Source: Reclinomonas americana ATCC 50394
Taxonomy: Eukaryota
Direction: 5' to 3'
Length of the DNA stretch: 46,569 nt
NCBI GenBank assembly: GCA_048213135.1
Contig: PS015361.1
Span: 46,524-93,092 of the forward strand
Positions 713 to 46,416 of this stretch are shown piece after piece (position 1 is the first letter of the stretch; each line of letters begins with the position of its first letter). The position numbers and the translations under genes are program-made. Below the pieces are notes generated by a model. It saw only the letters and a list, made by a program, of their open reading frames with translations, was not told the origin of the DNA and ran no database searches.

Positions 713-3700
713 CTGCACTCGAAAAAGTAAGGATGCGGGAAAAAGAATGAGAAGAGGAGCGTGCTAGGTGACGCAACGTTGTGGCGCTGCTGGCTGCGGG
801 GCATAGGTCGGGTACGCATACTGGGAAGCGGGAGGCGCGTACTGGGAAGCGGGAGGTGCGTACGGAGCATACTGCTGTTGCTGAGGTGGAGCATACTGCT
901 GTTGCTGCGGCGGGGCATATTGTTGTTGTTGAGGTGGAGCATATTGCTGTTGCGGCGGAGCATATTGCTGCTGCTGCTGTTGTTGTTGTTGTGCGTACGC
1001 CGCAGCGGTGACGGCGGCGGCAGACTGGGTGTAGGCGCTCGCGTAGCCGGATGGCGGCATGTACGCTTGACCGGCGGGCAACGTGTAGGGCGACGCTGAC
1101 GCCGGCAGTGTCGTGGCGACGGGCGCCGCGGCTGGCGGTAGCGTGGCGGTGGAGGCGGTGGTGGCGGGCGCGGCAGCGACAACCACTGGAGCGGCTGGAT
1201 TGTAGGCGGGCGGCGGTGGAGCGGACACCACTGGAGCGGCTGGATTGTAGGCTGGTGCCGGAGCAGCAGCCGGGAGTGTGGCGGCAGTGGCTGCAGGGAC
1301 GGCGGTGGTCAGAGAGGGGGAACTAATGAGTGACACACACATGCACTGGAGAAAGTGTGGAAAAAACGCACCAGTGACTGGCTGGCCCGCCGCTAATGTG
1401 GAAATGTACGGCGAAATGTACGAGTTGCCGAGAGAGGCTGGTGTGACAAAACGCATCGGCGTCAAGCCACTACTCGGGTCGGTCGATGCGGCCGCCGGCG
1501 CGGGGGAAGGCTGCCGTGGGGCGACCGTGGCTGTTGGCGACGATGATCGAGCACCCGGTGCGGCCAGGAAGCTGCCGCCAGTGGCCGGAGCCGGAGCCCA
1601 CATGGCGTACGATCCGGAGCCTGCAGTGGAGCTGGAACCGGAGCCGGAGCCGGAGCCGGACCGAGGGGCGGCCGGTGCAGCAGGCCCGCCGGCGGTCGCC
1701 GTCGGGGCGACCATGGGAACGGCAGCGGCAACAGGAGCGGCCCACATGGAAGCTGGCGCGGCGGAGACCGCCGTGGTAGTCGTCGTCGTCGTCGTCATTG
1801 GTGGCGGCATCATCGCCTGCACAGGCGCACTGACGACCACCGGGGCACTTTCGTTGAACATTGGCGGCGGCGGCGGCGCAGCAACGGCGACCGGAAGGCC
1901 AGTGGCAGTGGCCACAGGGGCGGAGACCGGCGTGCTGCACGTGGTGTGAGAATCGTGCTGGTGGACGAAAAGTGTGAGAGAGAGGGGACACACCTGGCAG
2001 CTCGCTGCGACGGCGCCTGCACCAGAATCGGCGTGTTCGCCGGTGAGTGGGTGGGCGGCGGTGGCAGCCAGTCGCGTGGTGCCTCCGGGGCAGCCTGCAT
2101 GCATACAAGGGCAGTATGAGGTCCGGTCGAAGCGAGTACGCCAAGGGAAAAGGGAACGGGACATACACACCGAAGCTACTGACGATTGCGAATCGGTGGC
2201 AATGGTTCTCGTTGGCTCCGCGCCTGCAGCAACAGACACTGCGACGTCAGATGGTGAGTGTGGGAGCGGAGAAGTGCAGACGCGCAGTTTCATACGGAAC
2301 TTTGTGCAAATGCCGCAGTCGCAGGTGCAATACCTGCGCAACACTGTCAGAAGAATAAGAAGGACGAGTCATCTCTGCATAAAATACCACGCAACTCTCG
2401 GGTGCCTGGACGACGCGCATCGGGGTCGGTGCTGCCGGTGCCACAGCGGCCTCGATGTAATCCATGTACTGCAGTCGAGGAGCGAATACGTCCGACGGTT
2501 TGATGTGCTGTGCGACGCGCATCGTGAGACAATGGCACACCGGCAGCACATTAGCGCAATCAAGTGCGTCACCGTGGTACAAATCGGGTGCGTGACGAAA
2601 ATCTGCACTCACACAGAAGGAGTGAGTGATTGACGCGAGGACAGAGAGAAAGAATGCGAGAAACACAGGTCGCAGCAAGCGCAACTGGGAGCTCCATGTG
2701 CACTTTCCGCTTCTTCTTGTTGCGCTTTTCGACCTCCACGTCCGCAAACACAAAGTAGGCAATGCGCACGAGGACGCCGCGGATACACGGTGGCGTCTGT
2801 GCCGGAATCTCCAGCGACATGACCAGTGCGTCGGCATCAAAGTTGCCACTGGTGAGAACCGTGGTCTCGTCCGTGGTCTTGCCGTGCGCACGAAGCGTCT
2901 TGGTGCGCACCAGCGTCGCTGCCACATTCAACAGCACTGCACGCAACAAGCCACAGGTGAGGGCGCTGTGCCCGAGACAAGGAGCGTGAAAGGCAAGCAG
3001 AACGCAACTGGCATCCGTCGACACGGTAAACGACACCACATCGCCAGCAAACTGCACCTGCCGCTCCGCTTGCAGCCTACGGAGTGTGAGTCGAACGCAC
3101 CCAGCGACAACGACAGAGGAGCATAACGCAACGACACCGAGTACGTCTTCTTCGTGACGGTCTTCACCACCGGCTGGAAAAACGCCTCGTCCTCCGACAA
3201 CAAACACTTTTGCAGCACAAACAGCGCCGCCCCGTCCTCAAACGCATCCGGCTGGCTCGCCGCACTGGCCACCGCAAAGTACGCCGAGGCCTGTGCCCAC
3301 ACTTTGCATCAACAACTCGCCCTCTTGCACGCAGACGACTGGCGTGTAAGGTAACCTGTCGCTTGGCGGCCACACATCGCACTCGGATCTCATATTGAAT
3401 GTAGCCGGCCGAGTACGTGACCGTCGACACGGCATCGTCTTGCAGGTAGCATGAGAATGGCAGTTTGTACACTCCCGGTGCCATGACACAGCAACCAGTC
3501 GCCGCATCGCGACCTGCAAGTGAGTGAGAAATCAAAGAAAAGGAACAATTGCAACACTGGTGCAGACTGAGAATGCGGAACTTTGCACCATGTGATCGGG
3601 AATGATGAGGTTGCTGTCCTCTTGCGTCACCTCCGATGTCTCTGTGTGGCAGAGGCTTGCTGAGCAACTGCACACAGAGACAGAGAGAGAGAGAGAGAGA

Positions 3701-4004
3701 CAGGCGCAGAACGTACCCTTGTGCGACTCGTCGAGCTTGACCAACTCTTTGCCAAAGACGCGCACACGCAGCAACGCAATCGCACGCTCCTCTGCCAGCT
3801 CCAGTGTCACAGTGCCAGTCACCACTACAACACACACGCGCGTGTGTGTGAGAGCGGGCGAGAGACACAGACACACACACACATGAGCGCGCAACTGCTT
3901 CCAGTGACGACAATGCCTCGTCCAGGCACCTCAATGTGCACTGCACTCTCGCGCGGGATGTTGACAGCAGCTGCAGCAGCTGCAGCAGCAGTGGGCGCCC
4001 ACAT
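621..4004 (-). CDS. Alpha-arrestin-like protein with Pro/Ala/Gln-rich tail, PPxY motif and C-terminal WW domain (multi-exon)
   Basis: Spliced arrestin-N-like segments VTGTVTLELAEERAIALLRVRVFGKE and GVYKLPFSCYL..STVTYSAGYIQYEIRVR; arrestin-C-like LEIPAQTPPCIRGVLVRIAYFVFADVEV..MELP; PPAY motif; last exon 712-621 gives PTAWQAYYDAQGRVYYYNPATGVSTYAPPS*. ATG at 4004, stop at 621-623. Confidence 0.8.
830..990 (-). repeat. Coding tandem repeats (YAPPQQQ[Q]) x4, (YAPPASQ) x2 and poly-Q
   Basis: Imperfect 21-24 nt units visible directly in the sequence and in ORF 764..2344. Confidence 0.85.
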
Positions 4005-4084
4005 CGATGTTTAATTAAAGACAAAAGAGACACAACTTGGCGAATTTGCATACGAGCTTCCTTCGTTGCTTTGTTTGTGTGTCA

Positions 4085-5250
4085 ATGGCAACGCAAGCAA
4101 CGAGTAACAACAGTGGTGGAAGTGCTATAGGCCGACTGGTGCCCATTGCATGCTCCATTGCAGTGGCCGGAGCAAGCTTCTTTATGATCAAGATCACCGA
4201 CGCTGTTTCGTGTTCTCTCTTTCGTTGCGCGTGTCGTGTGTGTTTTTTTCTCATGTGCAAAGCAGCTTCTTTGGTACACTGGAGGACCGGGTCAGCGATG
4301 CGCGTCGGAGTTGATTGAGGAGGTGGAAGATGAGTTCTTTCATGCGAGTTCCGCGCGGCGACGAGTCTACATGCAGCGCTTGATTGCGGCTCCGCGAAGT
4401 GCACCACCGCCACAGGCAGCAGCTCCTCCTCCTCCTCCACCACAACCTCAACAACAACAGCAGCAACAAGTTCTCTTTCAACCCAGGCTCAGTTGCGTTT
4501 CTTTGTTGCTGTCCGCGTGATGTTGTTGTCAGTCGTGCTCACTCTCTGTCGTTTTACACAGTGGATGTGCCGTTTCGTGTGATCGTTTGTCTCTCTTTGT
4601 TCTGCACACGTTGATCTTGTTGTTGTTGTTGTTGGCGACAGTGAGCATCTTGCGGAGCATGTCAATCGTTTGTTGCAAGTGTGGAGTCGTTGCGTTCTGT
4701 TTGTTGTCTTTGGTGTGTTGTGTGGCGAGAGTGCTCATCTGTGTGTGTGGAATGTGGCGTAGAGGTCATGGGGATCAGTTGCGTCTGCGTTGTTGATTGT
4801 GGTTGTCGACGAGGCTGTCACTGATTGCTTCTCGTTTCTGTGTGGCCAGACTTGCATGATTTGCCTGTTGCGTGCCTCTTTTGTGTTGTCTTTTTGATGA
4901 TGCGTGGTGGATGCTCATGGCTGGTGTGCGAGTAGATTCGCGGAGAGGCCCTCGACGGCAATCGAATCGACCAGCACACTGCAATTCAAGTGTGTCGGAC
5001 CGCGAATGATCTGCTTGCTTCCGACGGTTCCGGCGACATGTTTCGTGTTTTCTTGCACGCACCGGTCGTCCATCTGCTTGCTGACTCCTTCATCCACAGT
5101 TGTGCCGTTTGCTTGGACCCGTATAACATCGACGAGCGACTACGAGTGCTTCCGTGTCATCACCGCTTCCATGTTGCGTGCATCGATGCGTGGCTCCAGC
5201 GCAACAGTCTGTGCCCCACATGCCGCCACGACGTCCTGGTTCCTGCGTGA
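4085..5250 (+). CDS. RING-H2 E3 ubiquitin ligase with N-terminal hydrophobic segment; 8 exons including microexons
   Basis: Last exon CAVCLDPY..LPCHHRFHVACIDAWL..CPTCR is a C3H2C3 RING-H2. The frame closes through exons 4562-4571, 4642-4667, 4763-4777, 4850-4866, 4936-5039 and 5100-5250. Confidence 0.85.
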
Positions 5251-5406
5251 GCCAAGTACACCCACCCCGTCGTGACACTATGCTTGGTGTCTTTCTTTTT
5301 ACAGGAGCGACTTGTGGCGGCACTAGAGAACTCTTATCTACACACGCCAACACGATAGACTGACTGTACACACACACACGCACACACACACACTTAACGC
5401 CGTGTC

Positions 5407-8400
5407 TCAGCGGCGACCGGATGACTTCGGCACCGCTGCAGGCGACGAGCGAGTACCGGCTCCACGCACGAGTGGTGGTGACACCGACCGCGTACCGCCG
5501 CGAGTCGGGGACGTGCGCTTGTGTTCGGGTGAGTCGGCTTTGGTCTTGCGTGGTGCAAGACCCACTGGAGTGGTACCCGGCGGCATCACCCGGTGCGAAA
5601 CCTTGCGCGGCTGTGTCGCACGGTGGACGGTAAACACCGACTGCACAGGAAGAGTTGGGGAGTGAGACGAGAGCCGCAATCGCACACACTCACAGAAGAG
5701 GAGAGAGAGAGAGAGAGCAAAATTCGATCTCACCGACTCGGGCGAGCGTTGCGAACGTCGGTGCACCATCTCGTGCATCTGGGCCACCTGGTCGATGAGG
5801 TCNNNNNNNNNNNNNNNNNNNNNNNNNNNNNNNNNNNNNNNNNNNNNNNNNNNNNNNNNNNNNNNNNNNNNNNNNNNNNNNNNNNNNNNNNNNNNNNNNN
5901 NNNNNNNNNNNNNNNNNNNNNNNNNNNNNNNNNNNNNNNNNNNNNNNNNNNNNNNNNNNNNNNNNNNNNNNNNNNNNNNNNNNNNNNNNNNNNNNNNNNN
6001 NNNNNNNNNNNNNNNNNNNNNNNNNNNNNNNNNNNNNNNNNNNNNNNNNNNNNNNNNNNNNNNNNNNNNNNNNNNNNNNNNNNNNNNNNNNNNNNNNNNN
6101 NNNNNNNNNNNNGTCGACGGTCGGAATATTGAGGTCGGGCATCTCCTCGAGATCGCCATTTGCCGCCACGGCTGCTGCCGACAGTGGCGCACCGGACTCA
6201 CTCTTGCGGTCACTGGGCGAACGAGCCGCCGAACCGACGCCACCGTCGCGCGGCGAGTGTGGTCGAGTGTGCGTGCGCGAGCCGGGAGCCGAGAGTGTGG
6301 TTGGGGCCAGACGCGGTGCATCGAGATACGCAGATCCGTTGGCCAGGTCGGCGCGCGTCAGCTGTGCCACGAATAAGCAACACGAGCACACGTCATCGAC
6401 ACGAGAAAGACTCGTACCTTGCGCAGATATGAAGTGCGCTGCTGCGGACGTGCCACGAGTTCACCGGGTGGACTGTCTGATGTCGGTGCCACGGCGACTG
6501 GGACACCGGCCGGGCTTGACACATAAAGTGACTGCGGATGTGTGTGAAGTGAGTGAGTGAACCATCGACTACCAAGTGTGGGCGCAACGAGGGAGTGAGC
6601 GTACCAGGAGATTGCGCGACTCGTTGAGGCGGACATCGCGTTCCGGGCTGGAGCTGTGCTGACTGCCGGTGGCGACGGCGGTGGGTGGCGAGGAGCGGCG
6701 ATTGCGCAGTGTGCGTTGCGCAGCCTCCATCATGGGATCGCGTGGGGATGTGGGCGCCGAGGTTGCCGACTTGGTGCCGGCACCGACGGTCAGATAGGTT
6801 GGCGAACGAGGTGCGCTTCGCGCCGCTGGCGATCCAGCAGGTGGCGGCACCGGCACCAACGGTGCTGCTGCTGTCGCGGCTGCTGTTGTCGCCGACACGC
6901 GGAGCTGAGGAGACTTGGCAAGTGGCTCGAGAATGGAGCTCATGGCCTGCGCTGCACCACGCGGCGACGACGGCGCGGTGATGGAGGGCCGGCGTGCGTG
7001 CAACGGCGACGCAGAATCGAGGCGGAAGCGCACCGACGGGCTCACGCGATGTGGAGGTTGAGGTGGTGAGCCAGCTGCCACTGGCGACAGGTGATCGCCC
7101 GTCGCACTGCTCCGCAGGCGATTTTGTGCTGCGGCCGACAGCGACGATGACGGAAGTGGTTCAAGTCGCGGTGTGCCTGGTCGAGGCTGCGGCAGCGCGA
7201 CCGGTGAAACATGGCTTTCATCGGAGAGGAGGTTGGTGAGCGTGCTGAGGCGGGGAAAGAGCAGAGGGTGCTGGCAAACGCAACATGGTTGTTGGCGACG
7301 ATGCCGTCACATCAACCGAGAGCGGCGGGAGGCGACGGGGAGTCGGCGGTCGCACAGGAGGCAACACAGTGGTTGTTGCCGTCGTGGCTATTGTCGGTTG
7401 TGGTGGCGGTGGCGAGCCAGACGACAATTCTGTGACACACTCACTGAGTACTGGACGCGCACTGAGATGGACGTGCCGACACGTGAGAGACTTACCCTTG
7501 GCTTTCTGAACGGCCGACACCATTTTCTGCACGAGACTGGAGGGTCGGTTGCGGCCGGGTGATGGCGGTTGGCTCATCGAGCTGCTTCGTCTGGCCACGC
7601 GTTTCTGCAGCTGCTGCTGCAGTTGCTCAATGCCCTGCACACACACATTTTTGTTGAGATGAACACGCGTTTCACCACTTCGTCGGTCACACTCACTCAC
7701 CTCACGAGTGTCGAGCATCGCCATCACAGCAGAACGCGCAATGCCACTGGCGGTGGGCGCCGCCACCGACGACACCTTGTCGCGATCCGGAGTCTCCGGA
7801 AGCCGCAACTGCGGCACCTGCACGGGTGAGTTCGGCAATTGCGCCAACGGGGCCGCCAGATTCAGGTGCCCGATGATCACAGTCGAGAACAGCTCGCCCA
7901 GCGAACCCCTGCGTGCATTCACAACAGGGAGTGAGACGCATGACGTGGGGGAACGCCGAGTTACACCCTCTTGCCACCACGAAACTTGCCACCAAAGAGG
8001 ACCAGCTGCGGCAGCGGGCCAACGGTGATCACACAGGCGTGCTTGGAGCGCGGAGTAATGGCGTCAGAATCACGACGAGTCCACGGCTCTGCCGCAGGTG
8101 GCGCATCGCGATTTGCTGCCGCCATGGCGTGGTCCTCCAGGGCGTCTACCACAAGCGGAAGAACACGCAGTGAGCTCGCGACCCGCAGTGCCTTCGAAGA
8201 GCGCAGGCAACGCACCGGCATTGGCCACCCAGCAGTCGCCGAGAGCATCTTGCCGATGATTGATGCCTCCAATGACGACAAGGATGCGGCCGAAAGACGA
8301 CAGAGTCATGAACGAGCGCGGGCAAATCTGCTCCTGCACTCCCAGAAACGTCCACACGTTGGTGGTGGTGTCGTACACAAACAGCTCGTTGCTGTACTTG

Positions 8401-9339
8401 CTCTGCTGGTCACAAAAGCCACCAAAGAGGAACAGACCTGAGCACCAGGGTCAGACACACGCACCGATGAGTACGCCTGTCAGTGCGAGGACGACGCAAC
8501 GAGTGCCGACCGCAGTCATGGCATGACCGCACCGTGGCGATGGAACCTGTCCCTTCGGCTGCAACAGCGTGTACTCGTGGTCGCGCAAGTCAAACGAGCA
8601 CATGCTGTCGGTGGCGCGCACGGAGCCATCAAACACTTGCTGATTGCCGCCAAACACATACACGGTGGTGCCAACACGCGCACAGGCGGCCTCGTAGCGA
8701 CCTCGGAAAGTCGGAGGCATGCGCACGCGCTCAAAGTGCCCCGAGCCGTCACCCTTGTGCTTGTACCACTTGCGTTGCAGGCGCAAGCAGTACACATTGT
8801 GCAGACTGCAACCAACAAAAGACGTCAGCTACCGACGCGAACACACGGCTGCGTTGTGACAGAGCGCAACATGTTCCCCGACGCGTCGAGTCCAGAGAAG
8901 AGATACACGTGGGCGCCAGAGGAGAACGCCAAGTGGTCGGTGCGACACAGCGGGTTCGCCACACCACCCGAACCCATCATGAGCGACGCCAGTGCCGGCG
9001 ACGAGTTGAGCGCCACCGCCGCTATCACAAGGACACAAATGAACAGGAGTCAGCACTCTACATATGGTGTCTCACTCCTTCGTAACGCTCACCGGCACTC
9101 GGGGCCTCCCAGGTGGTCGGCGGACGCGCCCATTCTCCCGATCCCGGCAGCTGAATGACACCAAAGCCTCCGTCGAGTGCCGCCGACGACTTGGACTGTC
9201 GACTCCATCCTCCACACACCAACACACCACTCTCCGTGGCAGTCACTGTGGCGACGAGTGTGTGTGAGAGAGGGAGTGTGTATGGTTTGACTGCATCAAT
9301 GTGTTCGCAACTCGTGTGACCGACGCGTCCACTCAGCGA

Positions 9340-9693: not shown

Positions 9694-12537
9694 TCATGTC
9701 GCGTCGTCGCCGGCACCGGCGAGGGCACGGGCACGAGCTTCCCACATGGGTACTTCGTCGTCGCGACCGGCACGGCGGAGCACCAGCACGAGATTGCTGT
9801 AGGCCAGTGCGAAACCGGGCCACAAGCGGATGGCTTCCATGTAGTCTGCAGCGAGAGAGAGAGAGAGGTGTGTCATTCTCTGAGATTTGTACCGAGACGC
9901 GCCTTGCCATGTACTTACCATTGATGGCTTCTGTGAACTGGCTGAGGGCGGTATATGCATTCTGTGCAAAAAGGCAATGCGTTAAGAATCTCAATGTCAG
10001 CAAAAAAAATCGCGATTGCCAAGAGCACGCACTCCGCCTGCGAAACAACACAACGACAAACGGTGAGGGAATCGCCGGTGCAGCAGAAACAAGCGAAGAA
10101 ACGAGCGAAGGGAAAAACGGCCGCCCCCAAGAGGACGCACGATTCTGCAGGGAGAATCGCAAGTCAGCAAACAACGTTCCGCACCGGGCCATAGCATCTG
10201 TATTCATATATTCCACCCGACTCCGCGACGCAACATTCAGCGCTGTCCAGTTGTTCGCGTCCAACGCCAGTGCTCTTGTGCAGTCGTCTCTGTTATTTTG
10301 CACACAACATGCGATTCGCACGTAACAACAACCGGTCAGCGGACATGCACACGCAAAAGACAGGGGGACGCTGCCGTGCTGACCTCGCTCCCATGTAGTC
10401 TCGCATGCAGTACAACGAATCGCCGTGCGCCACCCACGCCATGGAGCACTCGGGGTCCAACCACAATGCGTGCTCCGAGTCCCGCAAGCCTGCGGCAACG
10501 ACGGCGGTGTCAGGCTGTGCAGAACAACACACATGCAGCTGAATGGAGGTCACCATCGTCGATGCGTCGACACCGATTGTGACTTCTCGCTCGCCCGCAC
10601 CACGCCAGCACAAGTCGTGGATCCAGTTCAATGGCCTCGTCTGTTGTTGCCGGAGAACATATGCATCACCATCAGGAGGAGATCGACAGGCAGACAAAAG
10701 GTGAATGAAACAAGGCGACGCAACCGTACAGACGGGTGGCTTCCGCGAAATTACGATCGCGATACATGGTGTCGGCATCGCGCAACTTGCGCAGTGCTCG
10801 CGATCGCCGAGCACTCGCTGCATGCGTCTCCAATGTCAACATCGACCAGCAAACAAGGGAGGTCAGTGCTGCAGATCCCTTTGCGAACCTCTAGAAAACA
10901 CTTGTGCACCACGGGCAAGCACCGTCGACATTGGTAATGCCAGCGCCATGTTGGCGACTCGTCCCGAAATGTCGGCCTTGATCAGCTCGTCTTGAATCGC
11001 CGCGTCCGCTGTGACCGACGAAGTCCCAATGTGTGTGATGAGCTGCGGGTGATGCACGAGCACATCCGACGGACGCACCTTCAGAGACCGCCAGCAGCAC
11101 CTGCAACATTTCTTCGACCCAGTCGATGCGAGGGATGCTGGCCGCCGACTCCAACCAACTCAGCGTCAGTGGCACCATGCACAGGTACCGGAAGGCGCCG
11201 CTATTGCCGCGATGATCTGCGACAGCATAAAGAGGGGTAAGTGTGAGTGGGAAGCAGACACTCACTCGCAACTCTAACACCAACGCACCGGTCACCGCAT
11301 TGCGGAGCGTCCGCAGCAGTGCAAGCGAGAGCATGTCCTCGCCGGTCCGTGACACCTCGCTCACCGCCAACGGCAACATGGCTTCACCCAACAACGAGAA
11401 GCGGTGGCACAAGCAGCGGAGCAGAACACGCAGACCCTCGCAGTCGTGAAACGCATCCTGATTCCGCACACAACCTGCAAAGACCAGTGAGCGATTTCAG
11501 TCCGTGCACAACTCTCTCGTTCACGTCCCGCAGACGAACCGGCCATGGCGTTCCCGATGCAGCCGAGCAGACATGAGGCAAGGAACGTCGGTGTTGACTC
11601 GCTGACCGCGCGAATCAGCAACGACATGCCGTCGCAGTCGGCCAGTTCATGCTTGCTTTCGGAGCATTCTGTTTCCCACACGCGCAATCAGCGTCTTCAC
11701 CACACACACCACACGCAAAGGGACGCGCACCACACAAAAGAGCCCAGAGCGCAGCAGCCGCACGCTCACGGATCACAAGCGGCACCGACGACGGCGACGC
11801 AATCTGCATCAACAGGAGACTCACGGCTCCCTGCTGTGCGGCCAATCGTCGCTGCGCCGGGTTCACTGTACGCGCACAGAGAACAGATCAGCTACAAACA
11901 ACAGAGCATGGCGGTCCACACACGTACACGCACACACATACCATGCAACAGATCCGACAGCGTCGCCAGCGCCTCGACCAGCACCGACTCATCGACACAG
12001 ACACCACGCAACACACCCAACAACTGCGACAAGACCACCACCTGCTGCTGCCCAACAACCACCACATCCACCGTCGGCGTGGTGCTGACCGCCCGCTCAT
12101 CCACCGCAACCACATTCCTCCGCGACACTTCTTCCACGGCGACCACCACCACCTCCTCCACTTCCTCCACTACATCATCATCGTCTTCGACCTCTGCCAA
12201 TTCCCGCTTGGCGCACCACGGCGCACCACTCGGAGCGATCTTGGATCGCGTTATCAGTGGTGGCGGTGGTGGTGGTGAAGATGAGAGAGGAGGAAGCAGT
12301 GGAGGCTGCGCGCGTGCTCTCCTAACGCGTTGTGCTGGTGGTCGACGCGGTGCGATCGGCGAGTATGAATGCAGCGGACCGGCCACGGAAGAGGAGGACG
12401 AGGACGACGAGGAAGAGGAGGACCGCGATGCTGGCGCGTCGCGATTCGCTGTGTACGTGAGAGTGAGAGAGTGAGAGTATGTAAGTGTCAGTGACTAAAA
12501 GCGAGCGCGCTTTCGGCGATGAGAATGACGCACCCAT
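9694..12537 (-). CDS. Armadillo-repeat plus C-terminal TPR protein
   Basis: ARM-like helices (NPAQRRLAAQQGAVSLLL, ERAAAALWAL, NQDAFHDCEGLRVLL) and TPRs (RLYDEAIELDPRLVLAWCGRA, DSEHALWLDPECSMAWVAHGD, DYMEAIRLWPGFALAYSNL). First coding exon appears to be ATGG then a GTGCGT intron. Stop at 9694-9696. Confidence 0.75.
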
Positions 12538-20129: not shown

Positions 20130-20921
<792 letters not shown>

Positions 20922-33907: not shown

Positions 33908-36900
33908 TCACTTGACCAGTACATCGCTGACCGCATCGTTAATTTGCACCAGGCCCTCGTCGCCGAGTTGCAACAGAGCCTCGCGCAATTCACCGTGTGT
34001 GATTGGCTGAGCGGAGAGACAACGAGAAGAATTGAGTGACACAGAAGTGGGGATAAACAAGGCACACGCAGACGCAGACGCACCCGATCGCGCTCCGCAT
34101 TCAGATCCTGCTGCAGTTTCCAGAACTTGACTGTCTGTCCGCTGCGTGGAATGAGCATGGCTCGCAGCTCGGCAGCCAGCGCATCGACATTGGCACGGTC
34201 GGCGGCAGAGTGACCCGTAATCAGCTTGTCAATGTCGATGAGACCGGTGTCGGGGTCCATGGCTGCCTGGTGCAGCGCCACCTTGAGCAGCCTGCACACA
34301 AGAAACCGCGATGAGACAAGAGCGGAAGGATCGGTGCGCGAGAGTGCTCTTGTGCAGCCGCACCTGACGGCTTCCGCCACATCAATACGCTCGACCTGTT
34401 GTGAGAAGCGCATTCGTGCGTGAGCCTCGCTCAGGCGGATCAGCGACTCCAGTTGGCGTGGTGTCGCCGACACGGTGTGCCGAGAGTTGCCGACGCGTCG
34501 CAGATCTGTGACAATTGATGGTTGCTGTGAGTCGCCTCGCGACAGCAGGTGAACAACAGTGAGAAGAACGCACCCCTGTAAGCACTCTGCAAGTCTGCGC
34601 ACGCCTCGTCGGTCAGCTGCGGGTGGACGTGCTTGCGAGCGTACGAAATGTAGCGCGTCAGCAATTCCATCTTTAGCAGGCGACCGCGGCTCGTGTGCCC
34701 GGGTGCTGCCGGTGCGTCGCCTGCAATAGCAATGGGGTGAGTGGCCTGAGAGACACGAAAAAGAGAGGAATCGGTGCAAACACAAACCATCAGTGGCTTC
34801 GCGAGTGCTGTACAGCGACACAATGTGCCGTGCCAGTGCACGATCGCGTTCCTCGTCGGCCACATCCAACAGCAGGTAAATGAGATCGAAACGCGACAAA
34901 AGCGTTGGCGGCAGGTTCAGATTGTCGACCACCGACAGGCGACGATTGTAGCGCGAACCGATGGGATTGGCCGAGGCGATAATGGAGGTGCGTGCATTCA
35001 GCGATGCCACGATGCCGGCCTTGGCAATGGACACGGTTTGTTGCTCCTGTGCACCCAATACAAATGTGAGGCACGCACGTTTGAACAATCCAGTGGAGGC
35101 CAGCACACTGACCATGGCTTCGTGGAGAATGGAGCGCGTGGCGTCGCTCATCTTGTCGAATTCGTCGATGCAACACACACCCCTGTCACTCAGCACCAGT
35201 GCGCCACTGCAGAGGCGACCATGAATCCACCCATACACTGCGGCGTGAGAACAATGCGCTTTCTCCCCGAGCGTACCTCTCCAGCACGGCCTCGCCCGAG
35301 TCCGGATCCTTGGTGACGTACGCAGTGAGACCGACAGCCGACGTGCCCTTGCCACTGGTGTAGATTCCACGCGGCGCAATGCGATGCTGCGGCGACAGAG
35401 GAAAGCAGTGATCACTACGTGGTGTTGTGGCTCGGGAGAAATGTGTTGTGTGCGCACCACAAATTGCAGGATTTGACTCTTGCTCACACCCGGATCGCCG
35501 ACCATCAGCACATTGATTTCGCCACTGCACGCCTGCGCAGTGAGCGACAAGAAATGCACCCCCCAACGTCTCCGACGGCGATCATCCCCAGCACGTACCG
35601 GAAGCGAGTATTACCGGCTGTCTTCAGCTCCTTGTTGGTGCCACCAAACAGCATGCACAGAATGCCTTTCTTCACATCGTCGAGTTCCCAAATGGACGGC
35701 GCTGAAGGGGGGAAAAGGAGAAAGACTGCTCAGCACAAGGACGAAAAACAGCAACTTCACACGAGTGACACGAACCGAATGAGCGCACAAGCGTGTCATA
35801 AATGTCGGGCGACTGCGCCAGGTCCTGCAGCTCACGCTCCTCATCGTTGGTGATGGTGTCGAGTGGGTCGCCCTCCTCAACACTGCGGCGAGGAAAGAGT
35901 AAGCAAAAAATAGAGAGTAATGTGCCGACTGGAACGTGCGACGCAACGAGGTAAAGAATTCCGAGTCCTCTGGCACACGACGATCCTCGACCGACATGGA
36001 GCGCTGATCCATCTTGCGGAAGTGGATGACATCGACGTACGTCCGGTACACCGACTTGATGGAGCGGTTGCGTGGGTTGGGGCGGATGGGCGCGGCACGG
36101 AAAATGCCGGTAGCCTCAACGCGATCACCCGGCTTCACGTAGTCGACCAGGTCGTCGAAGCACACCAAATTCACCGTGTGCGGCGTCTCGCCCTCCGGAA
36201 TAGCCTCTGTGTGCAAGTGGGGAGACGAGGGGTTGGCGAACAACAACAACAACAACAGCAAGAGAAGCATGGACATGGGTACCGGGGACGCACCAGGCGA
36301 CTCTTGCAACTTGACGAGCTGCTTGTCGGTGTAGAAGCCTCGGTTGTGGACGATTCGCATCGACATTTTCGCGTGGCAATGATTGCATCGTGTCGGCTCC
36401 TCGATGCGGCCGCGATCAATGGCCACTTCGAGTTGGAAGTGGCACGAGTCGCAGCGGAAGAAGGCGCTCTTGATGTCGGGAATGATGGAGGTGGAGCGGA
36501 TGACCATTCCACGCACGGAAATCAACTGGTCAACTGTGCACGCCACAACCCGTGTCAAAAAATCCTCGTGACGACAGACAGAACTCGCAGAACGAAAAAT
36601 GCAACTGTCGGAGGGATTCAGGTCGCGCATGGCCTTGTACTCGCCACGTCGCAAGTTGAAGAGGCGGCACTGCGGCGGTCGTCGGTACTCGCCACCGCCG
36701 GCCACATTCTCACTCAGGCGACTGAAGTACGCCGACAGTTCCATGTCGGCCACCGGAATCACCTGCCGATCCACCATCACGCGTCAGTATCGTGGAAACG
36801 CAACGTCAAGCGAGAGCGACTCTCAAACCTCTTGCGGGTAGCGCACGAGCTGCAAGTAGAGGTTCGGATCAAATGCAAACACATTCTCACAATCAATGTT

Positions 36901-37987: not shown

Positions 37988-39127
37988 ATGGCTGCCGCCT
38001 CTGGTTCCGGGTCTGACGACGTGTACAAGATTGTGTTCATCCGCCACGGCGAGAGCGAGTGGAACGTGCAGAACATCTTCACGTTGCGTAGGCAGCACAT
38101 CCTCTCCTCTCTCTATCTCACTCTCTGTCTCACACACACTCACACATTCGCTTGTGTGCATGAGCAGTGGCTGGACTGATGTGGATGTTGCGTCTGCGTG
38201 TTACACACATGTGTGCGATCATGAGGATGATTGACACGACATTCATTCTGTGCTATTTTGTTTGTAGTTGTCGCCCAAGGGCTTCGAGGAGGCCGCGCAG
38301 GCTGCGCGTCTGCTCAACGACGCCGGCTTCACGTTTGACCACATCTTCACCTCGGTGCTGAAACGTGCCATCCGCACCATGTACATTGGTGAGCATTTTG
38401 TCGTTGTCGCCGTGCATGCGTGTCTCATGATGATGATGCACCAGTGACCGACGGCCTGAACCTGTTGTGGGCACCGGTGACGCGCTCGTGGCGTTTGAAT
38501 GAGCGCCACTATGGTGCGCTGCAGGGACTCAACAAGGCCGAGACCGCCGCCAAGCACGGCGAGCAGCAGGTGCTCATCTGGCGCCGCAGCTACGACATTG
38601 CGCCGCCTGCTCTGGAGGCGGGCGATGAGCGCGATGCGCATCTCGATCGCCGCTACGCCGACCTCGATCCCGCACTGGTGAGTGATGACTCCATGCTTGC
38701 TCGTCACTCGTGGTTGCTGAGTCGCCGCACGCAGGTCCCCATGTCAGAGTCGTCCAAGGCCACCGTGGAGCGCGTGCTGCCGTACTGGTACTCGGACATT
38801 GTGCCCATGATGCAGTCGGGCAAGCGTGTGCTGGTGGTGGCTCACGGAAACAGCATCCGCTCGCTGGTGAAGCACCTGGACAACATGTCGGAGGAGGAGT
38901 TTATCAACCTCAACATTCCGGTGCGTGTCGCCCACGCGTCTTTGCAGCTCCGTCGTCGCTTGTGTGCGCATACTCACACGTGATGTGCTGTGTAGACGGG
39001 TGTGCCGCTGGTGTACGAGCTGAGCAAGTCGGATCTGTCGGTGCAAAAGAAGTATTACCTGGGCGACCCGGAGGCCATTGCTGCCGCCATGCAGGCCGTC
39101 GCCAACCAGGGCAAGGCGAAGCACTGA
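37988..39127 (+). CDS. gpmA: 2,3-bisphosphoglycerate-dependent phosphoglycerate mutase (dPGM, gpmA/PGAM family)
   Basis: [63 protein letters not shown]. Six exons. Confidence 0.95.
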
Positions 39128-39253
39128 GCTGTCACGACAACTTTTTCCCCTTTCATTGTATTTCCGCCCCTTTCCATCTCTCTCTCTGTGTGAGTAAGCG
39201 CCCAACATGGTGCTGCACGTAAAAAAAGAGTGATGGAGAGAGACATGTCGATC

Positions 39254-42098
39254 TCACGCCACACGAGTGGCGTACTCCACAGTTCCGTACCAACTTGGCA
39301 CCTGTGCACGAGTGAGACAGGCAGGCAAGTGATGATGTGAGACTCTTGCTGATCGCCGCAACTGAGATGCCGTCGGCCTGTCAGTCGAGTGAAATTGAGA
39401 AGAAAACGGAGAGGAGGAGCGATAAAAACAGCAAGCGACAGCGTGACTGCACCTTGCCGTTCGATCCCATGTGGAAGTGAACGTACGATCCGAGCGCGAT
39501 TCCCATCCACTCCAGGCACGCGACTGCGTCGGCTTGTACGCGGAACCTGCGCAGCCGAACGATCATGAGCGAGATGAGACAGTCTGCAATCTGACCACTG
39601 CAGCGCACGCAACGTATGCGGCGGCAGGCGAGATCCGTTGGGGGTGCCATTCTGCCATGAGAGCAGCAGGTTGCCCATGCTGCTCATGATCACCAGGTAG
39701 GCTGTCATTCGGTGGTGCGTGAGCAAGCCATGCCGAATTCACGTCGACCAACACATGCACAGCGCAACTCTTGCCGTCCTTGACAACCGACGTCACCACC
39801 GCCTTGATGACGACTTGCCCGTTTTGAATGTACTCGTACGTTCCTGTCGAGAGACACTGGTCAGGAAAAACAGGGAGTGCATCAGCACTTGTGTGCGCGC
39901 GATACCAGTGTACACATCACAGCAGTTCGGAGGCAGGTTCGGTGCCTGGTGGGCAATCACATACGACTCCACCGCCGGCTGTGACCTCAAGCATCAGCAC
40001 ACTCGTTTTACGATCCACCACAACGCTGCGCCACCACAAACCAACAGTGCATCAAGAGCAGGCGCGGCAAAGAGCGAGCCGTCAGTGGGGAAGTTCACGA
40101 ATGCGGCCACCGCGAGTTTGATATCTGTCGGAGTGATGAGTGAGTGAGACTCTCGGCAGTCGGCAGTACATCGTTCAAAGCACACACACACACGCCCACC
40201 TGGAACCAGAGCAACCGATGTAGCAAACACGCCAACCAGGCCACCCTTGGTCGGCACCCAGTGCTGCGTTCCATCGGCATCTTGTCAGTACAAAACACGA
40301 TTCATCCCCCGTCACACACACACACGCCTGCCCACCGATCGAGTGTAGACCGTCTCCCAGCCACCGTGACCAATCGCCGACATGCCGTTGCGATGATTGT
40401 ATCGCGGCAGCATGTGCTGGTTCTTCAGTCGCTGCGACATGATCGATGGCGTGGCGCCCTCCGACTGCATGTAGAACTGGAGGAACTTTTGCTGCGCACG
40501 CGCAAACATCCATGTATGAGCAAGACGTATATGCAGGAGCTAGACAACCACCACGCAAACAAAACCATATCGGTCATCGTCGTGTACATTTGACCAGCAG
40601 GAGCCGACCATCCCTGATGCCATCGACACAAAGTGAGAGACAACGACACTCTCATTTTGCCAACAAAAGAAGCAACCACAACGCAACGAGATCCATCGGT
40701 TGTGCGCCGTTGAGTGGTGGCATGCGTTTCTTCACATTCGGGTCGCTGACGTTGAAGCCGGAACTTGTCATGCCGAGTGGCTGCAACACGTACTTTTGCA
40801 GCAGCGTCTCGTATTGTTGGCCCATGGCAGCCTCGAGTGCGCGTCCCAGCAGCGAAAAGCCCAGATTCGAATAATCGTCACGTGTGTTGCCTTTCGAGAG
40901 CGTGAGACAATTGTGAGACAGATGGTGCCAGGAGAGAATGTGGGGGTTTTCACAGAACCTACCGGGATACATCAAGTACTCCTGTCGCAGAAGCGCCCAC
41001 ACTTGAGACGCCGTCTCGTTGCTGTGCGGACGATAGACAAGTGAGACAGTACATCGGGTGAGTGTCGACGACAAAAAAAGCGGAAGCGCAACAAAATCTG
41101 AGCAGCCTCGCGCTACTCGAGAGCACAAGTGGTGTGAGCAGCGACGACGTGACAACACAAGAGCAAATACGGCATCAACGCACCGGCAGTCCTGACACCT
41201 GCGATGCCAGCTCGTCGAGTGTCGTGTCGACGGGGAGGCCCGAGAAGGGATTGTTGATGGTATACTCGGGCAGGTACTTGCGGACCGGGTCGTCGAGCTG
41301 CACGAATCCACGGTCGTGCAGCACTGTGAAAATGATGAACACAGTGAGCTGCAAGTTCTCTCCATCGCTACCATCCGCACTCACCATACAACAGTGTCGA
41401 CGTGAACATCTTGGTGACGGATCCGATCTGGAAGATGGTGTCGGCCGTCGGTGCCACGCTGTCGGGCGTGTTGAAGCCGGCGAAGCGCGTCACCGCAGCA
41501 CCCGAGTCGTCCACAGCAACCACGCCGAGCGCCACCTACCACAGAGTCGGACGGAGAGGAGAGAAAGAGAAAGCAGGCCCCACACACGAACCGAGAACTG
41601 CCAGTTGACGCCTTGTTGGTGCAGGTTGTTGGAAATCGTCTCCATCTCCGACTGCACCGCCTGCTTGGCCGCCTGCCAGGCGGCACTCACTTGCGGGTCG
41701 TTGAAATCCACTGTGGGATGCGCATCAAGCGGCGCCGGGCACGGGCCAGTGCCCACAAAGCGCTACAATCACAATCAAAACGATATGAGATCGGAGAATC
41801 AAAGTCATGCATGACATCCACACGCACCTTGGCGAATGGATTGTCGGGATCCGCCGCATTTCCGACCTCACGCACACGCTCCAAAGCCGCATTCATCACC
41901 ACATCGTTCCCTGCGCGTTCGCATGTGAGCGAGAGGAGACGCTGTGGAGGAGAGAGTGGAGAGAGTCACGAAACTCGCATCGAACTCATCCGCGAGTGGC
42001 GTCGATATCTGCTGATACAGGTGATGGGGCGCGCCCTCCACGCACAGCACAACACTGCAGACAAGCAGCAGCAGCAGCAGTGGGAGCAGGGATCGCAT
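39254..42098 (-). CDS. Secreted serine beta-lactamase/penicillin-binding-protein-like family hydrolase (LACTBL1-like)
   Basis: Signal peptide MRSLLPLLLLLLVCSVVLCVEG; SxxK in FQIGSVTKMFT; LDDPVRKYLP; LASQVSGLPRE; YxN in YSNLGFSLLG; DLGWSAPAGQMYT; third motif TKGG. About 14 exons; the last exons are less certain. Confidence 0.88.
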
Positions 42099-42222
42099 CG
42101 ATGATTGATTGTGGAACAGTCTGGGACAGTGCGAGCATGCGCGCGCAATCTCCACTGTCACTCCAATTTGGGTGTGGGGGGTTTGCGTTGACACAGTGTA
42201 AGTGTGTGTGTGTGCGCGAGTG

Positions 42223-42792: not shown

Positions 42793-42825
<33 letters not shown>

Positions 42826-44933
42826 AGAGGAGGATATGACAAAGATCGACGACTCACCCGACACGGGGCCGCTGTTCTACATTTTCGACTCGCACCGGCC
42901 CATCAGTCTCGAGAACATTCAGCACCCACGAGTGCGTACCGCTGTCCTCCAGTGGAATGGCTGCAGCAGTTTGCTCACTGCGCTGGTGCAGGTCAAGATT
43001 TTTGAGATTGGCGACATTACGCACGAGGCGCAGCTGTTGCATCAGAACCTGGACCAGGCCACGACGGCAGCCAAGGCGGCAGACGATTTTCTCGAGGGCG
43101 ATGGCGACGGGGAATCGTCACGATTTGATGAGGAGGAGGATGACGACGACGACGACGATGAAGATAGCGACAGTGATGACGATGACGATTTGGACGTGGC
43201 CAGTGGCATGTCGGGTCGGAGGAGACCGCGCAGTGCGTACTTGTCCACTCACTGTCCTTCCCTCACATGTTGACCACTCGCTGCGCACAGGTTCCGCCGG
43301 GAGCGATGTGGGTCCGCCCAGAAAACGGCGACGCAAGGACGACGCAGGTGGCCGTGTTTCACGACGCCGACTTTTGCGGCGAGCCCAGCGCCAGGTGCTC
43401 AAGGAGCACTATTCGGTTCGTTTTGACGCACAGGGGTAGCTGTTGTACGTGTGCGCTGGCTGACGCGTGGAGCGTGCAGGGCATTACGTGGGGCATTCCG
43501 TCGTCGATGGTGGCCTTCTTGTTGAGCACGAAGCTGCAACAGGCCACTTCCGACATTCGCTGGTGGGCCATGGTGGGTCTCGCCGACCTCTTCACTCGCA
43601 ACTGCTTCTCGGAGGAGCGGTATCGCGAGCTGTTTGCCGCCATGGCCGAGGAAATCGCGGCGGCCGAAGGCGACGCTTCCTCGCTGCAAACCGACCGACT
43701 CATTCGCGACTCGCGGCTGACCTGTGGCATCGAGTTGCGTGCCGGATATCGCTTCTCCACGTATCTCTCTTCCTCCCCTCCCCTTCTCACTCTCTCGACG
43801 GCAGGTATCGGTTCCCGCTGCTGCGTCACTGGTCGCTGTTCGACTCGATTGCACACACGCCACACGTGATTGGCAAACTGAAAACGTGGACGGAGCGCGG
43901 AGTGCGCAAGCTGGAAGAAATGTTTGCCAAGCTCGGTATTCCGCTGTTGGACGCCAAGACATCAGTTGCGTGCTGCTGCGTCACGCGCCACCAAAAAAGT
44001 GATGCTCACGCGAGACTCGCAGTTTGGCAGTGTCCACCCGAAAGTGGTCCACACGCTGGAGGACAACACCGACCTCCTGGCGCAGGAGTTGGACATGAGG
44101 TCGTCGTCGCACACGCCGATTGGCCTGCCAATGTGCATGAAACCGTACGGCTACACGCTGCGGCTGACCTGCACCGACATGGCCGAGGCGCTGGGGGCGA
44201 TTTTTGAGTCGCCGCAAGCGTTGCCGCCGTCGTTGCGGGGCATGGTGCGCACACAGTCGTCGGTGTTGCTGGAGGAGCACATGCGTGTCGCCGCGTCGGC
44301 CTCGGGATCGATGTCGGACCGTGCGAGCGAGGGCGCCGGTATGGCGGCGCTGCGCATGGAGGTGCGCATGAAGGAGAACTTTTGGTTGGCCTACGATGCA
44401 CTGGCGAGGTGAGTTGAAAAAAACGATGGTGAGATCGACCGCCTCCTGATTCTGTGTTTGTGCGCAGCGAGCTTTCCGGTCGGCAGGGCATCCTGAGTTT
44501 CGGCGTCCAGCAAGCGGTGGCGCGCCGCGAGGCCGTGTTGCGGCAGGCTCTTGCGTTGTGGAAGCGCAAGATGATTTCCAATGTCGGCAACCTGCGCTAC
44601 GCCCACATTGACCGCTCGCCCGACCTGCCGTACCTGCTGCATCCGGGCACACTGTTTGCGCTCTGTCACTTTGTGATGCACATGTTCCGTGGTGACGGTC
44701 GTCGTGCCAGACCGCTGGTGCTGGCCGCTCTGGACGAACAACGCGGCATTTGGCTGGTGGTCGGCACGCCAGCACTGGGCACCACATCGCGCAACACCTT
44801 TGGCAACGTATTCCGGAGAGCCGCCAAACGCAGCCGCGCTCGCGTGCATCACACGATGTTCAACAAGGCGTGCATCGAGGTGCACACGGACGACTTTGCC
44901 AGCTTCTGGGACACGCTGGCTGGTGGGGAATGA
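42223..44933 (+). CDS. CDC45: Cell division control protein 45 (CMG helicase subunit)
   Basis: MLIKEDDF..DADAVCTARIL, INCGGLVDL, YIFDSHRPISLENI, acidic loop plus PPRKRRRK, YRFPLLRHWSLFDSI, KLKTWTERGVRKLEEMFAKLGIPL, NFWLAYDAL, NTFGNVF. Confidence 0.93.
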
Positions 44934-45195
44934 AATCGAGCAATCCAATCGTCACCGCTGACTGACAAGACACACATTCACTTCCCACAAAACGACCGAG
45001 GCGCAAAAGAGAAGAGCAATAGAGAGACAAAGACAAAGAGCAGCAAGGGTGGTATGCATGCACAATGTGAGAAAAAATCGGAAGATAACGGATCACAGCC
45101 ATCGTCAAGGATTGCCGTGGTCACAAAAGGAGGAGATAGAAAGACAACAAGCAACTGTCGGAGACACACTCATTCACCGTTCGCAGCGGCGCAAG

Positions 45196-46416
45196 TTAAC
45201 CAGTCGCAAACTTGACGGCCAGCACCAACACGAGGACGGCGCAAGCAATCTTCCACAGCATGTCGTTGGAGGCAGCGGAAGCATCTGCACACGTTACAAA
45301 AAAAAAGAAGCGGTCAGCGAGAGACATGATTGTGTGTGTGCGCGCGCGAGACAAAGTCGTTTCACCCGCACCGCCAGCATGGCCGCCCTTCTTCTTCTTC
45401 TTGCCCTCGCCACTCGGCTGTCCGTCGGCCTCACCAGCGGCGGCCGACGGCTTGCCGCCCGACGCAATAACGCGAGCCTCCTTCAGCTCGCGGCGCAGCT
45501 GCTCGACCAGACGGCGCTCCTCCTTGCGCTCAACAGCCACAGCAGCAATCTGTACATGCATGAGTCTCATGGTTAGATCTACCACCCCTCTCCGCCCGCA
45601 ATGGTGGTGACGGCAGCGCACCTGTTGGGCGGCCTCCTCCTCAGCCGCAGCAGCACGCTGCTCCAGCGACTGCACTTGGCTGCGCAGGCGATCGCGTTCC
45701 TTCTGGAACTGGCTTTGACTGCAGCGGTGCGATTGTGTTGGTGAACAAAACAACGGGGGGAGCAACAGACGGCACAGCAGCGCGCACGCGACGAAACTCA
45801 GTACGCAGTTTCGCCGTTTGCTCCTCAATGCTCGCCGCACGCTTTGTCAGCGCCTTCGTCTCCTTCTCGTAGTGACGCTTCTGCTGCTCGGCCTCGTCCA
45901 AGCTACTCGGCACACACGCACACACACACCCCTCCCATGAGATTCGAAGGAGGGGTGGGAGTGACGGAAGAAAAAGGAATGCACGCACCGGCCCTGCAGA
46001 GTGGCATCAAACGAGCTGCGGTACTCGGCGAATGCCGCCTTCTCCTCGGCAAACTTCTTATTGGTGGCGTCGAGCTCGGCATCGCGTGCCCTCAACTGGC
46101 GCTCCTTCTTCTGGATGGTATCCAGAGCCGCTTGGTACTGCTGGTACTGCTGCTGCAGGCTGTTGCGGGTGGTTTCCAACTCGTCACGCTGCTTGTTGTA
46201 CGCAGTCACTTGCGTGTCCAACTCGCGAGACCGTGCCGCGTGGGCATTGTGCAGAGCCTGCACCTCCGCCTTTTGTTGCTCCAGGCCGCGCTGCACGTCG
46301 AGTGGATCAACGTCAGCACTGCAGCGCACATTGCGCATACACTCATGGTGGTCTCTCACCTGCAACTCGATTTGCTGGCGTCGCAACTGCTCCAACTTGG
46401 CCTCCTCGGCCTTGAG
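45196..46416 (-). CDS. 3' part of a long coiled-coil protein with C-terminal transmembrane anchor (tail-anchored, golgin-like)
   Basis: Heptad-rich exons ending MLWKIACAVLVLVLAVKFATG*. The gene continues past the window end. Confidence 0.72.

Follow-up and report, generated by a model that had tools for sequence, protein, structure and literature searches.

Positioning of 5' cleavage at the hand-off from U1 to U6, U5 and Prp8 has been studied mainly on rare human splice sites and on mutants; human shifted sites number only a few dozen. Here we analyzed a 46,569-base stretch of Reclinomonas americana ATCC 50394 (contig PS015361.1), about 59% G+C and with six N gaps, which we refer to as the window. 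It is eukaryotic nuclear DNA with many genes and many introns, and roughly a fifth to a quarter of those introns (19-27%) start with GTTNCG(T), mostly GTTGCGT, instead of the ordinary donor G/GTGCGT (the slash marks the cut throughout). Reading frame, homology and base statistics show these donors to be a real second class of GT-AG 5' splice sites, and an abundant one. It is probably, though far from certainly, read through a U1 register shifted by +1.

In Caenorhabditis elegans, one of the cryptic sites used in unc-73(e936) is reportedly a GU composed of the -1G and the mutant U. The mutation is a +1 G-to-U change that forces use of a neighbouring GU (Zahler et al. 2018, PMC6140464); the same account implicates SNRP-27 and PRP-8 in positioning the 5' splice site at the U1-to-U6 hand-off, and gives a G at +6 in 14 of the 26 5' sites that are promoted in mutants. 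For human, PMC4856993 puts all validated non-canonical registers between 5' splice sites and U1 together at 1.5% of 201,541 sites, and its Table 3 holds 54 curated sites for the '+2/+3' bulge register (Tan et al. 2016). A review (PMC9311317) lists the same shifted and bulged registers. Ostreococcus lucimarinus has an atypical 5' splice-site consensus, GTGCGTG, outside chromosome 2, as described by Irimia & Roy (2008, PMC2483917), who raise the possibility of changes in small nuclear RNAs (snRNAs) that match the divergent site. Our literature search by motif and lineage, in which supplementary tables were not covered so that an earlier description is possible, returned neither a GTTGCG-type donor class nor any jakobid splice signals.

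We sorted donors by their intronic bases into class A (GTNCG), class B (GTTNCG plus GTTGCA) and class C (GTNNGT). The initial annotation of the window had listed 25 GTTGC[GA] and four GTTTCGT donors; all 29 are present where it placed them, with 45797 on the minus strand. It had also counted 23 of the 25 exons as lacking a final G, and we found the exonic G only at 10724 and 30609. As a plain word, GTTGCG has 82 copies on the two strands, where shuffled sequence has 53.9 +/- 7.0 (none of 100 dinucleotide shuffles reached 82), and the ordinary donor word GTGCGT has 85 where shuffling gives 63.8 +/- 7.9.

The class B boundaries were examined by protein homology, using a protein-to-genome spliced aligner that accepts any GT...AG intron of 35-600 nucleotides (nt) at one flat penalty and is blind to the donor motif. 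The genes concerned are the following (kb, kilobases):

MCM4, ~37.4-33.9 kb, minus strand; Pfam match and 120 homologues
2,3-bisphosphoglycerate-dependent phosphoglycerate mutase (dPGM), 37,988-39,127, plus strand; database matches
Secreted serine hydrolase of the beta-lactamase family, 42,098-39,254, minus strand; homologues
CDC45, 42,223-44,933, plus strand; Pfam profile
PDE6D-like gene, near 20.1-20.9 kb, minus strand; gene model, read by hand

We aligned 14 homologues of MCM4 and 20 of dPGM, and for the serine hydrolase we used the best 25 of 47 aligned. Six class B donors were backed by the flat-penalty alignment: 38083, 38187, 36605, 35947, 40687 and 41092. Their introns are listed here together with two from CDC45 and the PDE6D-like gene; the donor-blind finder is a gene finder that we describe below.

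38083..38167, plus strand, CAC/GTTGCGTA...CAG, 85 nt, dPGM; 20/20 homologues, donor-blind finder
38187..38267, plus strand, GAT/GTTGCGTC...TAG, 81 nt, dPGM; 20/20 homologues, donor-blind finder
36534..36605, minus strand, ACA/GTTGCATT...CAG, 72 nt, MCM4; 12/14 homologues, donor-blind finder
35883..35947, minus strand, CTC/GTTGCGTC...CAG, 65 nt, MCM4; 7/14 homologues (alternatives 1-2 each), donor-blind finder
40614..40687, minus strand, CTC/GTTGCGTT...CAG, 74 nt, serine hydrolase; 20 of best 25 homologues, donor-blind finder
41022..41092, minus strand, TTT/GTTGCGCT...CAG, 71 nt, serine hydrolase, after a 6-codon micro-exon; 9 of best 25 homologues (7 of these share the acceptor), donor-blind finder
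43734..43804, plus strand, CGA/GTTGCGTG...CAG, 71 nt, CDC45; Pfam positions contiguous, donor-blind finder
20741..20871, minus strand, ATT/GTTGCGTA...CAG, 131 nt, first intron of the PDE6D-like gene; hand reading, missed by both passes of the finder

The exons of CDC45 fall at collinear positions of the Pfam profile, and those flanking 43734 are contiguous: the exon of 84 residues matches 225-292 with its residues 3-70, and the next matches 308-359. A homologue search with a 53-residue exon of this gene (E up to 1) gave 9 candidates, of which none scored. Donor 20871 was read by hand, as an intron of 131 nt with its CAG end at 20741 that joins an ATG-started exon (phase 2) to the next open exon. 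We take this PDE6D-like gene to be collinear with animal PDE6D.

The same alignments placed ordinary donors, all on the minus strand, as follows:

MCM4 donor 36828, GTTTGAGA; 13/14 homologues
MCM4 donor 36293, GTGCGTCC; 13/14 homologues
MCM4 donors 35775, 35598, 35457 and 35276; 14/14 homologues each
MCM4 donor 35112; 12/14 homologues
MCM4 donor 34787; 5/14 homologues
MCM4 donor 34573; 14/14 homologues
MCM4 donor 34363; 13/14 homologues
MCM4 donor 34083; 8/14 homologues
Serine hydrolase donor 41384; 24 of best 25 homologues
Serine hydrolase donor 41183; at least 20 of best 25 homologues
Serine hydrolase donors 40962 (14), 40565 (14), 40335 (12), 40199 (13) and 40041 (7); homologues of best 25

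Donors 39768, 39613 and 39362, in the C-terminal part of the serine hydrolase, lie outside homologue coverage. Removal of 13 introns, two of them class B, turns MCM4 into 739 codons with 0 stops, while the other frames hold 22 and 21. In dPGM all 20 homologues gave the same five introns, with donors 38083 (GTTGCGTA), 38187 (GTTGCGTC), 38389, 38678 and 38921, and all 20 supported a micro-exon of 19 nt (38168-38186, plus strand) that has GTTGCGT introns on both sides. The dPGM intron 38678-38734 (plus strand) is 57 nt long, in-frame and stop-free; it was seen by homology only (20/20) and missed by both finder passes. Because such introns are visible only by homology, they will be under-counted in frame-based annotation. 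Other very short exons were predicted as well, one of 10 nt (4562-4571) and some of 15-18 nt (41095-41112, 40246-40263 and 39363-39377).

The finder extends the analysis to the rest of the window. It is a Viterbi gene finder with self-trained codon usage, an intron-length term (peak 60-95 nt), a bonus for CAG/TAG and an intron composition term, and in its donor-blind pass a donor is defined as 'GT' only. Codon usage alone was too weak (8 introns in the MCM4 model), so the length, CAG and composition terms were added; a second pass combined the donor-blind terms with an empirical hexamer score. The donor-blind pass gave 26 gene models with 140 introns. It recovered 24 of 28 benchmark donors and the second pass 26 of 28 (one benchmark donor, 37232, has 1/14 homologues), and the two passes called 23 and 25 of the 29 initially listed sites. 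GTTGCG was the commonest donor hexamer of the donor-blind pass (23/140), a 15-fold enrichment over non-donor GT sites in genes (29/2,723), followed by GTGCGT (17/140). From a position-independent matrix of these donors one would expect 2.7 GTTGCG and 2.9 GTGCGT, so the two words are discrete modes and not the tails of one matrix. For this window, the excess over such a matrix that the initial annotation had made a touchstone of its proposal is therefore present. Its rough estimate of a fifth of introns also holds up, since GTTGC[GA] begins 26 of 140 donor-blind introns and class B donors begin 38 of 139. Members beyond its list include 3008, 8870, 23529 and 27782. If retained, 34 of the 38 class B introns would break the frame or bring in an in-frame stop. 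A decoy control with antisense predictions yielded only 2 decoy introns.

The finder never reads exon positions, so that the last exonic base (-1) is an independent test. Among homology-supported introns, -1 was G at all 21 ordinary donors and at 0 of 8 class B donors (Fisher p = 2e-7). In the donor-blind set (n = 139), -1G was found in 26/33 of class A, 19/21 of class C, 3/38 of class B and 18/47 of the unclassified donors; the contrast between class A and class B (Fisher p = 7.7e-10) agrees with the claim, made initially, of an abundant distinct class anticorrelated with -1G. Relative to the frequencies of these bases in exons, -1G is depleted in class B (3/38 versus 0.317, p = 5e-4) and -1A is enriched (18/38 versus 0.196, p = 1e-4). 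At the homology-supported ordinary donors -1G was invariant, also at those with a weak intron side (GTAGGTTC, GTTTTGTT and GTGGGCAG; donors e.g. 36828, 40962 and 40335). In this genome an ordinary donor seems hardly able to do without the exonic -1G.

One could argue that class B is an artefact of annotation, the true junctions lying elsewhere or being non-GT, or the extra T being an error of the draft assembly. The cut positions do come from sequence only, the draft has six N gaps, and the finder was wrong on 4 of the 28 benchmark donors. Nevertheless, homologues put six junctions exactly at class B sites, removal of the 13 MCM4 introns, two of class B among them, leaves one stop-free frame, and the 15-fold enrichment arose in a finder blind to the motif. 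Insertion of a T would not remove -1G, and the absence of this G in 8 of 8 cases leads us to reject an assembly or homopolymer error. We consider an artefact very improbable.

Class A and class B donors appear to share one signal. G/GTGCGT and /GTTGCGT are a single seven-base word in which the second letter has changed from G to T and the cut in the latter is one base upstream. Logos aligned on the CGT core agree, with G before the C in 26/38 class A and 30/41 class B donors, and T after the CG in 30/38 and 27/41. Since T replaces the first G of the intron in class B, a GU remains only where the normally exonic G meets that T, which places the cut one base upstream. We infer the U1 register and all steps at U6 and U5 from these regularities. 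U1 would pair with one and the same seven-base word in either class; at class B sites, +1G would pair in the usual place of -1G, +2U would be mismatched, +3U would replace +2U, and the N-C-G-U core would pair as usual. U6, U5 and Prp8 would then direct cleavage to the one GU that is available. At the U6 stage of class B the CGU core would lie one base further from the cut, which implies some accommodation such as a one-base bulge. Shifted pairing would account for the loss of -1G (its role being taken by +1G), for the gain of -1A, for the near-constant T and for the coinciding core logos. The -1A enrichment corresponds to the preference of the -2 position of a canonical site, as fits a shifted register.

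Alternatively, U1, and later U6, could pair with these sites canonically around a bulged U (+2/+3): +1G and +2U would pair, and the surplus U would loop out ahead of N-CGU. Bulge registers, '+2/+3' included, are experimentally established in human (PMC4856993). A bulge within UU is positionally degenerate and would account for the predominance of T at the extra position, +3 (35 of 39 GTNNCG donors). For the CGU core to pair at the U6 stage, some such bulge seems to be needed in any case. A bulged U explains the T, however, and not the loss of -1G: it keeps -1 opposite C9 of U1, where G should be favoured, whereas class B sites are depleted of -1G in both intron sets and enriched in -1A instead. 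With a human-type U1 5' end (taken from PMC4856993), which may not be that of the host, the class B consensus pairs at 0.4 kcal/mol in the shifted and 2.2 kcal/mol in the bulged register, a difference that is only suggestive. The initial annotation had left two options, +1G in the role of the exonic -1G or a bulged U. The depletion of -1G and the coincidence of the core logos favour the former, the +1-shifted register, and we regard the latter as unlikely.

A third possibility is a recognition RNA reserved for class B. Either a second U1-like snRNA or a variant of U1 would match GUUGCGU with its 5' end in the canonical register, and two particles would serve the two classes. The class is sharply discrete (23 GTTGCG donors where 2.7 are expected), it has its own exon context and it pairs very weakly with human-type U1; in human, variants of the U1 snRNA are known (PMC3561869, PMC10870369). 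On the other hand, the two classes do not differ in their core-aligned logos, which makes one RNA in two registers simpler than two particles, and class B introns resemble the others in length, branch motif and composition. We find this explanation quite improbable.

Several observations weigh against a shifted register or limit the evidence for it. With human-type U1, duplexes average -1.5 kcal/mol in class B, -5.3 in class A and -7.1 in class C, which means that either U1 differs in this organism or pairing is not the whole story. A few class B sites keep -1G (10724, 26462 and 15624). The finder is imperfect: even the second pass misses 38678 and 40199, and 47 of the 139 donor-blind donors fit no class, many of them probably false calls. 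Within genes, 29 sense-strand copies of GTTGCG (14 exonic, 15 intronic) were not called as donors by the donor-blind pass. The motif alone is thus insufficient to make a donor, and some of these copies are miscalls, e.g. 4492. All evidence comes from one 46.6-kb window, in which the cut position follows from the GT-AG rule, the reading frame and homology, and the register from statistics alone.

At +4, the 50 canonical donors have 26 C, 11 T and 9 A, which inverts the common preference for +4A. Together with the weak pairing, this excess of +4C suggests that the U1 of this organism differs at the position facing +4, and hints at a G there, as has been speculated for Ostreococcus (PMC2483917). 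The initial annotation had suggested variant U1/U6 snRNAs or altered U1C, LUC7 or U5-loop factors, which may play a part. An Rfam scan of the window, including U1, U5 and U6, gave 0 matches at the gathering score. A more far-reaching and tentative idea, which may well not hold, is that in this lineage the U1 register routinely does not dictate where the 5' cut falls. The G-N-U-N-C-G-U anchor would then be common to all introns, a quarter of them being cut one base upstream, where alone a GU is present, with re-wired snRNAs (position 5 of U1 pairing with +4C, and a tolerant U6/U5/Prp8 centre) or, more radically, with a second U1-like RNA for GUUGCGU.

In other respects class B introns resemble their neighbours. 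Their mean length is 72.7 nt versus 74.4 nt, and their base composition is similar to that of ordinary introns. YTNAY occurs in the last 45 nt of 40/41 class B introns (median distance from its A to the 3' splice site, 21 nt) and of 28/38 class A introns (20 nt). Of the 3' ends of 45 listed class B introns, 44 are CAG or TAG and one is AAG. With GT and AG ends, a branch-like YTNAY and, after their removal, an open frame collinear with homologues, they share these properties with U2-type GT-AG introns. We rejected a U12-type origin: RTATCCTT had 0 matches on both strands of the whole window, and class B donors read GTTNCG. The longest intron seen, 131 nt against the usual 56-97 nt, is intron 1 of the PDE6D-like gene; a (GT)n(GA)n microsatellite (20815-20862, minus strand) accounts for its length.

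A mobile family could also yield a discrete donor with its own exon context, and class B might then consist of young copies (introners) with their own donor and a preferred insertion site. Class B introns are, however, no more alike among themselves than they are like class A introns: local alignment scores averaged 13.78 over 820 B-B pairs and 13.69 over 1558 A-B pairs (p = 0.45 by the Mann-Whitney test), and the top scores were similar (B-B 36, A-B 38, A-A 33). Relative to 703 A-A pairs (mean 13.47) B-B pairs differed at p = 0.019, a small gap of 0.3 score units. We rejected introner-like copying, which strikes us as scarcely credible.

Besides the genes named above, Pfam matches and gene models point to RING-H2, arrestin-like, kelch, LRR/IQ and coiled-coil genes in the window. 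The remaining class B introns and donors are listed below; those marked new were absent from the initial list, and 'both passes' refers to the donor-blind and the second pass of the finder.

43965..44022, plus strand, TCA/GTTGCGTG...CAG, 58 nt, CDC45; second pass only, Pfam collinear, not precise
39302..39362, minus strand, TCA/GTTGCGGC...CAG, 61 nt, C-terminal part of serine hydrolase; both passes
39547..39613, minus strand, TAC/GTTGCGTG...CAG, 67 nt; both passes
39702..39768, minus strand, AGA/GTTGCGCT...CAG, 67 nt; both passes
41911..41974, minus strand, CGA/GTTTCGTG...CAG, 64 nt; both passes
45719..45797, minus strand, TGA/GTTTCGTC...CAG, 79 nt, coiled-coil gene; both passes
713..777, minus strand, AAC/GTTGCGTC...CAG, 65 nt, arrestin-like / WW-ended gene; both passes
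2224..2300, minus strand, AAA/GTTCCGTA...CAG, 77 nt; both passes
2334..2395, minus strand, AGA/GTTGCGTG...CAG, 62 nt; both passes
2603..2685, minus strand, CCA/GTTGCGCT...CAG, 83 nt; both passes
2937..3008, minus strand, CCA/GTTGCGTT...CAG, 72 nt, new; both passes
3077..3132, minus strand, GTC/GTTGCGTT...TAG, 56 nt, new; second pass only
3514..3581, minus strand, AAA/GTTCCGCA...CAG, 68 nt; both passes
3825..3895, minus strand, GCA/GTTGCGCG...TAG, 71 nt; both passes
4205..4295, plus strand, GCT/GTTTCGTG...CAG, 91 nt, RING-H2 gene; both passes
4492..4561, plus strand, TCA/GTTGCGTT...CAG, 70 nt, RING-H2 gene; second pass only, donor-blind pass chose 4470
4572..4641, plus strand, GCC/GTTTCGTG...CAG, 70 nt, putative, would leave the 10-nt exon 4562-4571; second pass only
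4778..4849, plus strand, TCA/GTTGCGTC...CAG, 72 nt; both passes
4867..4935, plus strand, CCT/GTTGCGTG...TAG, 69 nt; both passes
5040..5099, plus strand, CAT/GTTTCGTG...CAG, 60 nt; donor-blind pass 5040, second pass 5027 (ACG/GTTCCGGC) with the same acceptor
7215..7284, minus strand, possible, CAT/GTTGCGTT...AAG, 70 nt, kelch-repeat gene, unusual acceptor; second pass only, weak
7909..7985, minus strand, CAA/GTTTCGTG...CAG, 77 nt; donor-blind pass only
8806..8870, minus strand, CAT/GTTGCGCT...CAG, 65 nt, new; both passes
9022..9086, minus strand, AGC/GTTACGAA...TAG, 65 nt; both passes
9246..9311, minus strand, CGA/GTTGCGAA...CAG, 66 nt; both passes
10641..10724, minus strand, ACG/GTTGCGTC...CAG, 84 nt, -1G; both passes
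15624..15693, plus strand, CAG/GTTCCGTT...CAG, 70 nt, -1G; both passes
17119..17185, plus strand, ATC/GTTGCGTG...CAG, 67 nt, coiled-coil gene; both passes
18829..18912, plus strand, TCT/GTTGCATC...CAG, 84 nt; both passes
21343..21434, plus strand, AGT/GTTTCGAT...CAG, 92 nt; both passes, weak gene model
23529..23605, plus strand, CGA/GTTGCGTT...CAG, 77 nt, new; both passes
23749..23755, plus strand, initially listed donor ACT/GTTGCGT; motif present, intron runs into the N gap 23802-23922
25280..25349, minus strand, GAA/GTTGCGAG...CAG, 70 nt; passes disagree, donor-blind pass 25296-25362 (TAT/GTTCCGCC)
26366..26462, minus strand, TAG/GTTGCGCA...CAG, 97 nt, -1G; both passes
26906..26972, minus strand, CAA/GTTTCGCT...CAG, 67 nt, LRR/IQ gene; both passes
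27709..27782, minus strand, CGA/GTTGCGTC...CAG, 74 nt, new; both passes
30609..30615, plus strand, initially listed donor GAG/GTTGCAT, -1G; motif present, called by neither pass, weak gene model
31652..31734, plus strand, possible, GAC/GTTGCATT...CAG, 83 nt; donor-blind pass only

The spliced MCM4 protein is 66% identical over 631 residues to MCM4 of the jakobid Seculamonas ecuadoriensis, 63% identical to a metagenome protein, and 47-57% identical to the other 18 of the best 20 listed matches. The matches included no protein of a close relative, and they make a jakobid affinity likely. The best 120 database matches of dPGM are ~55-62% identical, and the few named ones are bacterial metagenome bins; the gene is possibly of bacterial ancestry. 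Its five spliceosomal introns make it a resident nuclear gene. An intronless open reading frame of 391 codons without a Pfam match (28520-29695, plus strand) lies in intron-rich surroundings. Glutamine runs (CAA/CAG repeats) and long low-complexity tracts of Ala, Pro and Ser are common in the predicted proteins, for example at 779-1288 (minus strand), 12928-13149, 18250-18640 and 29400-29500 (all plus strand).

The statistics support a non-canonical U1 register, probably a shifted one, as a regular, major splice-site class, such registers themselves being already known from human. If this reading is true, the genome would offer hundreds to thousands of natural, in-frame test cases with a one-base offset and a near all-or-none switch at -1, together with specific, checkable predictions about its snRNAs. 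If cutting is uncoupled from the U1 register, as in the tentative idea above, the organism would be a natural system in which to study what determines the cleaved bond once U1 has left. Gene finders with a single donor matrix will miscall class B introns, including those around micro-exons of 19 nt as in dPGM, so that annotation needs a two-class donor model.

The window also differs in intron content from a described jakobid, Andalucia godoyi, which is intron-poor in the account of PMC7050145 (introns in 107 of 864 genes), whereas MCM4 alone has 13 homology-supported introns here. With Ostreococcus lucimarinus (PMC2483917) the ordinary donor G/GTGCGT shares the unusual +4C; Ostreococcus is intron-poor with one strong consensus and, as far as that account goes, no second shifted class, in contrast to the intron-rich window. 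The unc-73 case in C. elegans (PMC6140464) is a mutant with out-of-frame splicing, while class B is the normal, in-frame state of many genes. The human '+2/+3' bulge sites (PMC4856993) resemble class B in having GU, then an extra U before the pairing core, and a conserved G that lies one nucleotide further from the cut. They should keep a preference for -1G, which is lost here, and class B is more frequent by orders of magnitude. The human shifted register, as cited in PMC4856993, is also similar: the helix is moved by one position with +1G in the place of -1G, cleavage is still at GU, and the conserved G is at +6 and not +5, all as proposed here. In the window the core is N-CGU, compared with AAGU at human shifted sites, the register is read from sequence, and the -1G split is almost absolute. 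Whereas all non-canonical registers in human together make up 1.5% of sites (PMC4856993), class B alone accounts for 19-27% of the introns in this window.

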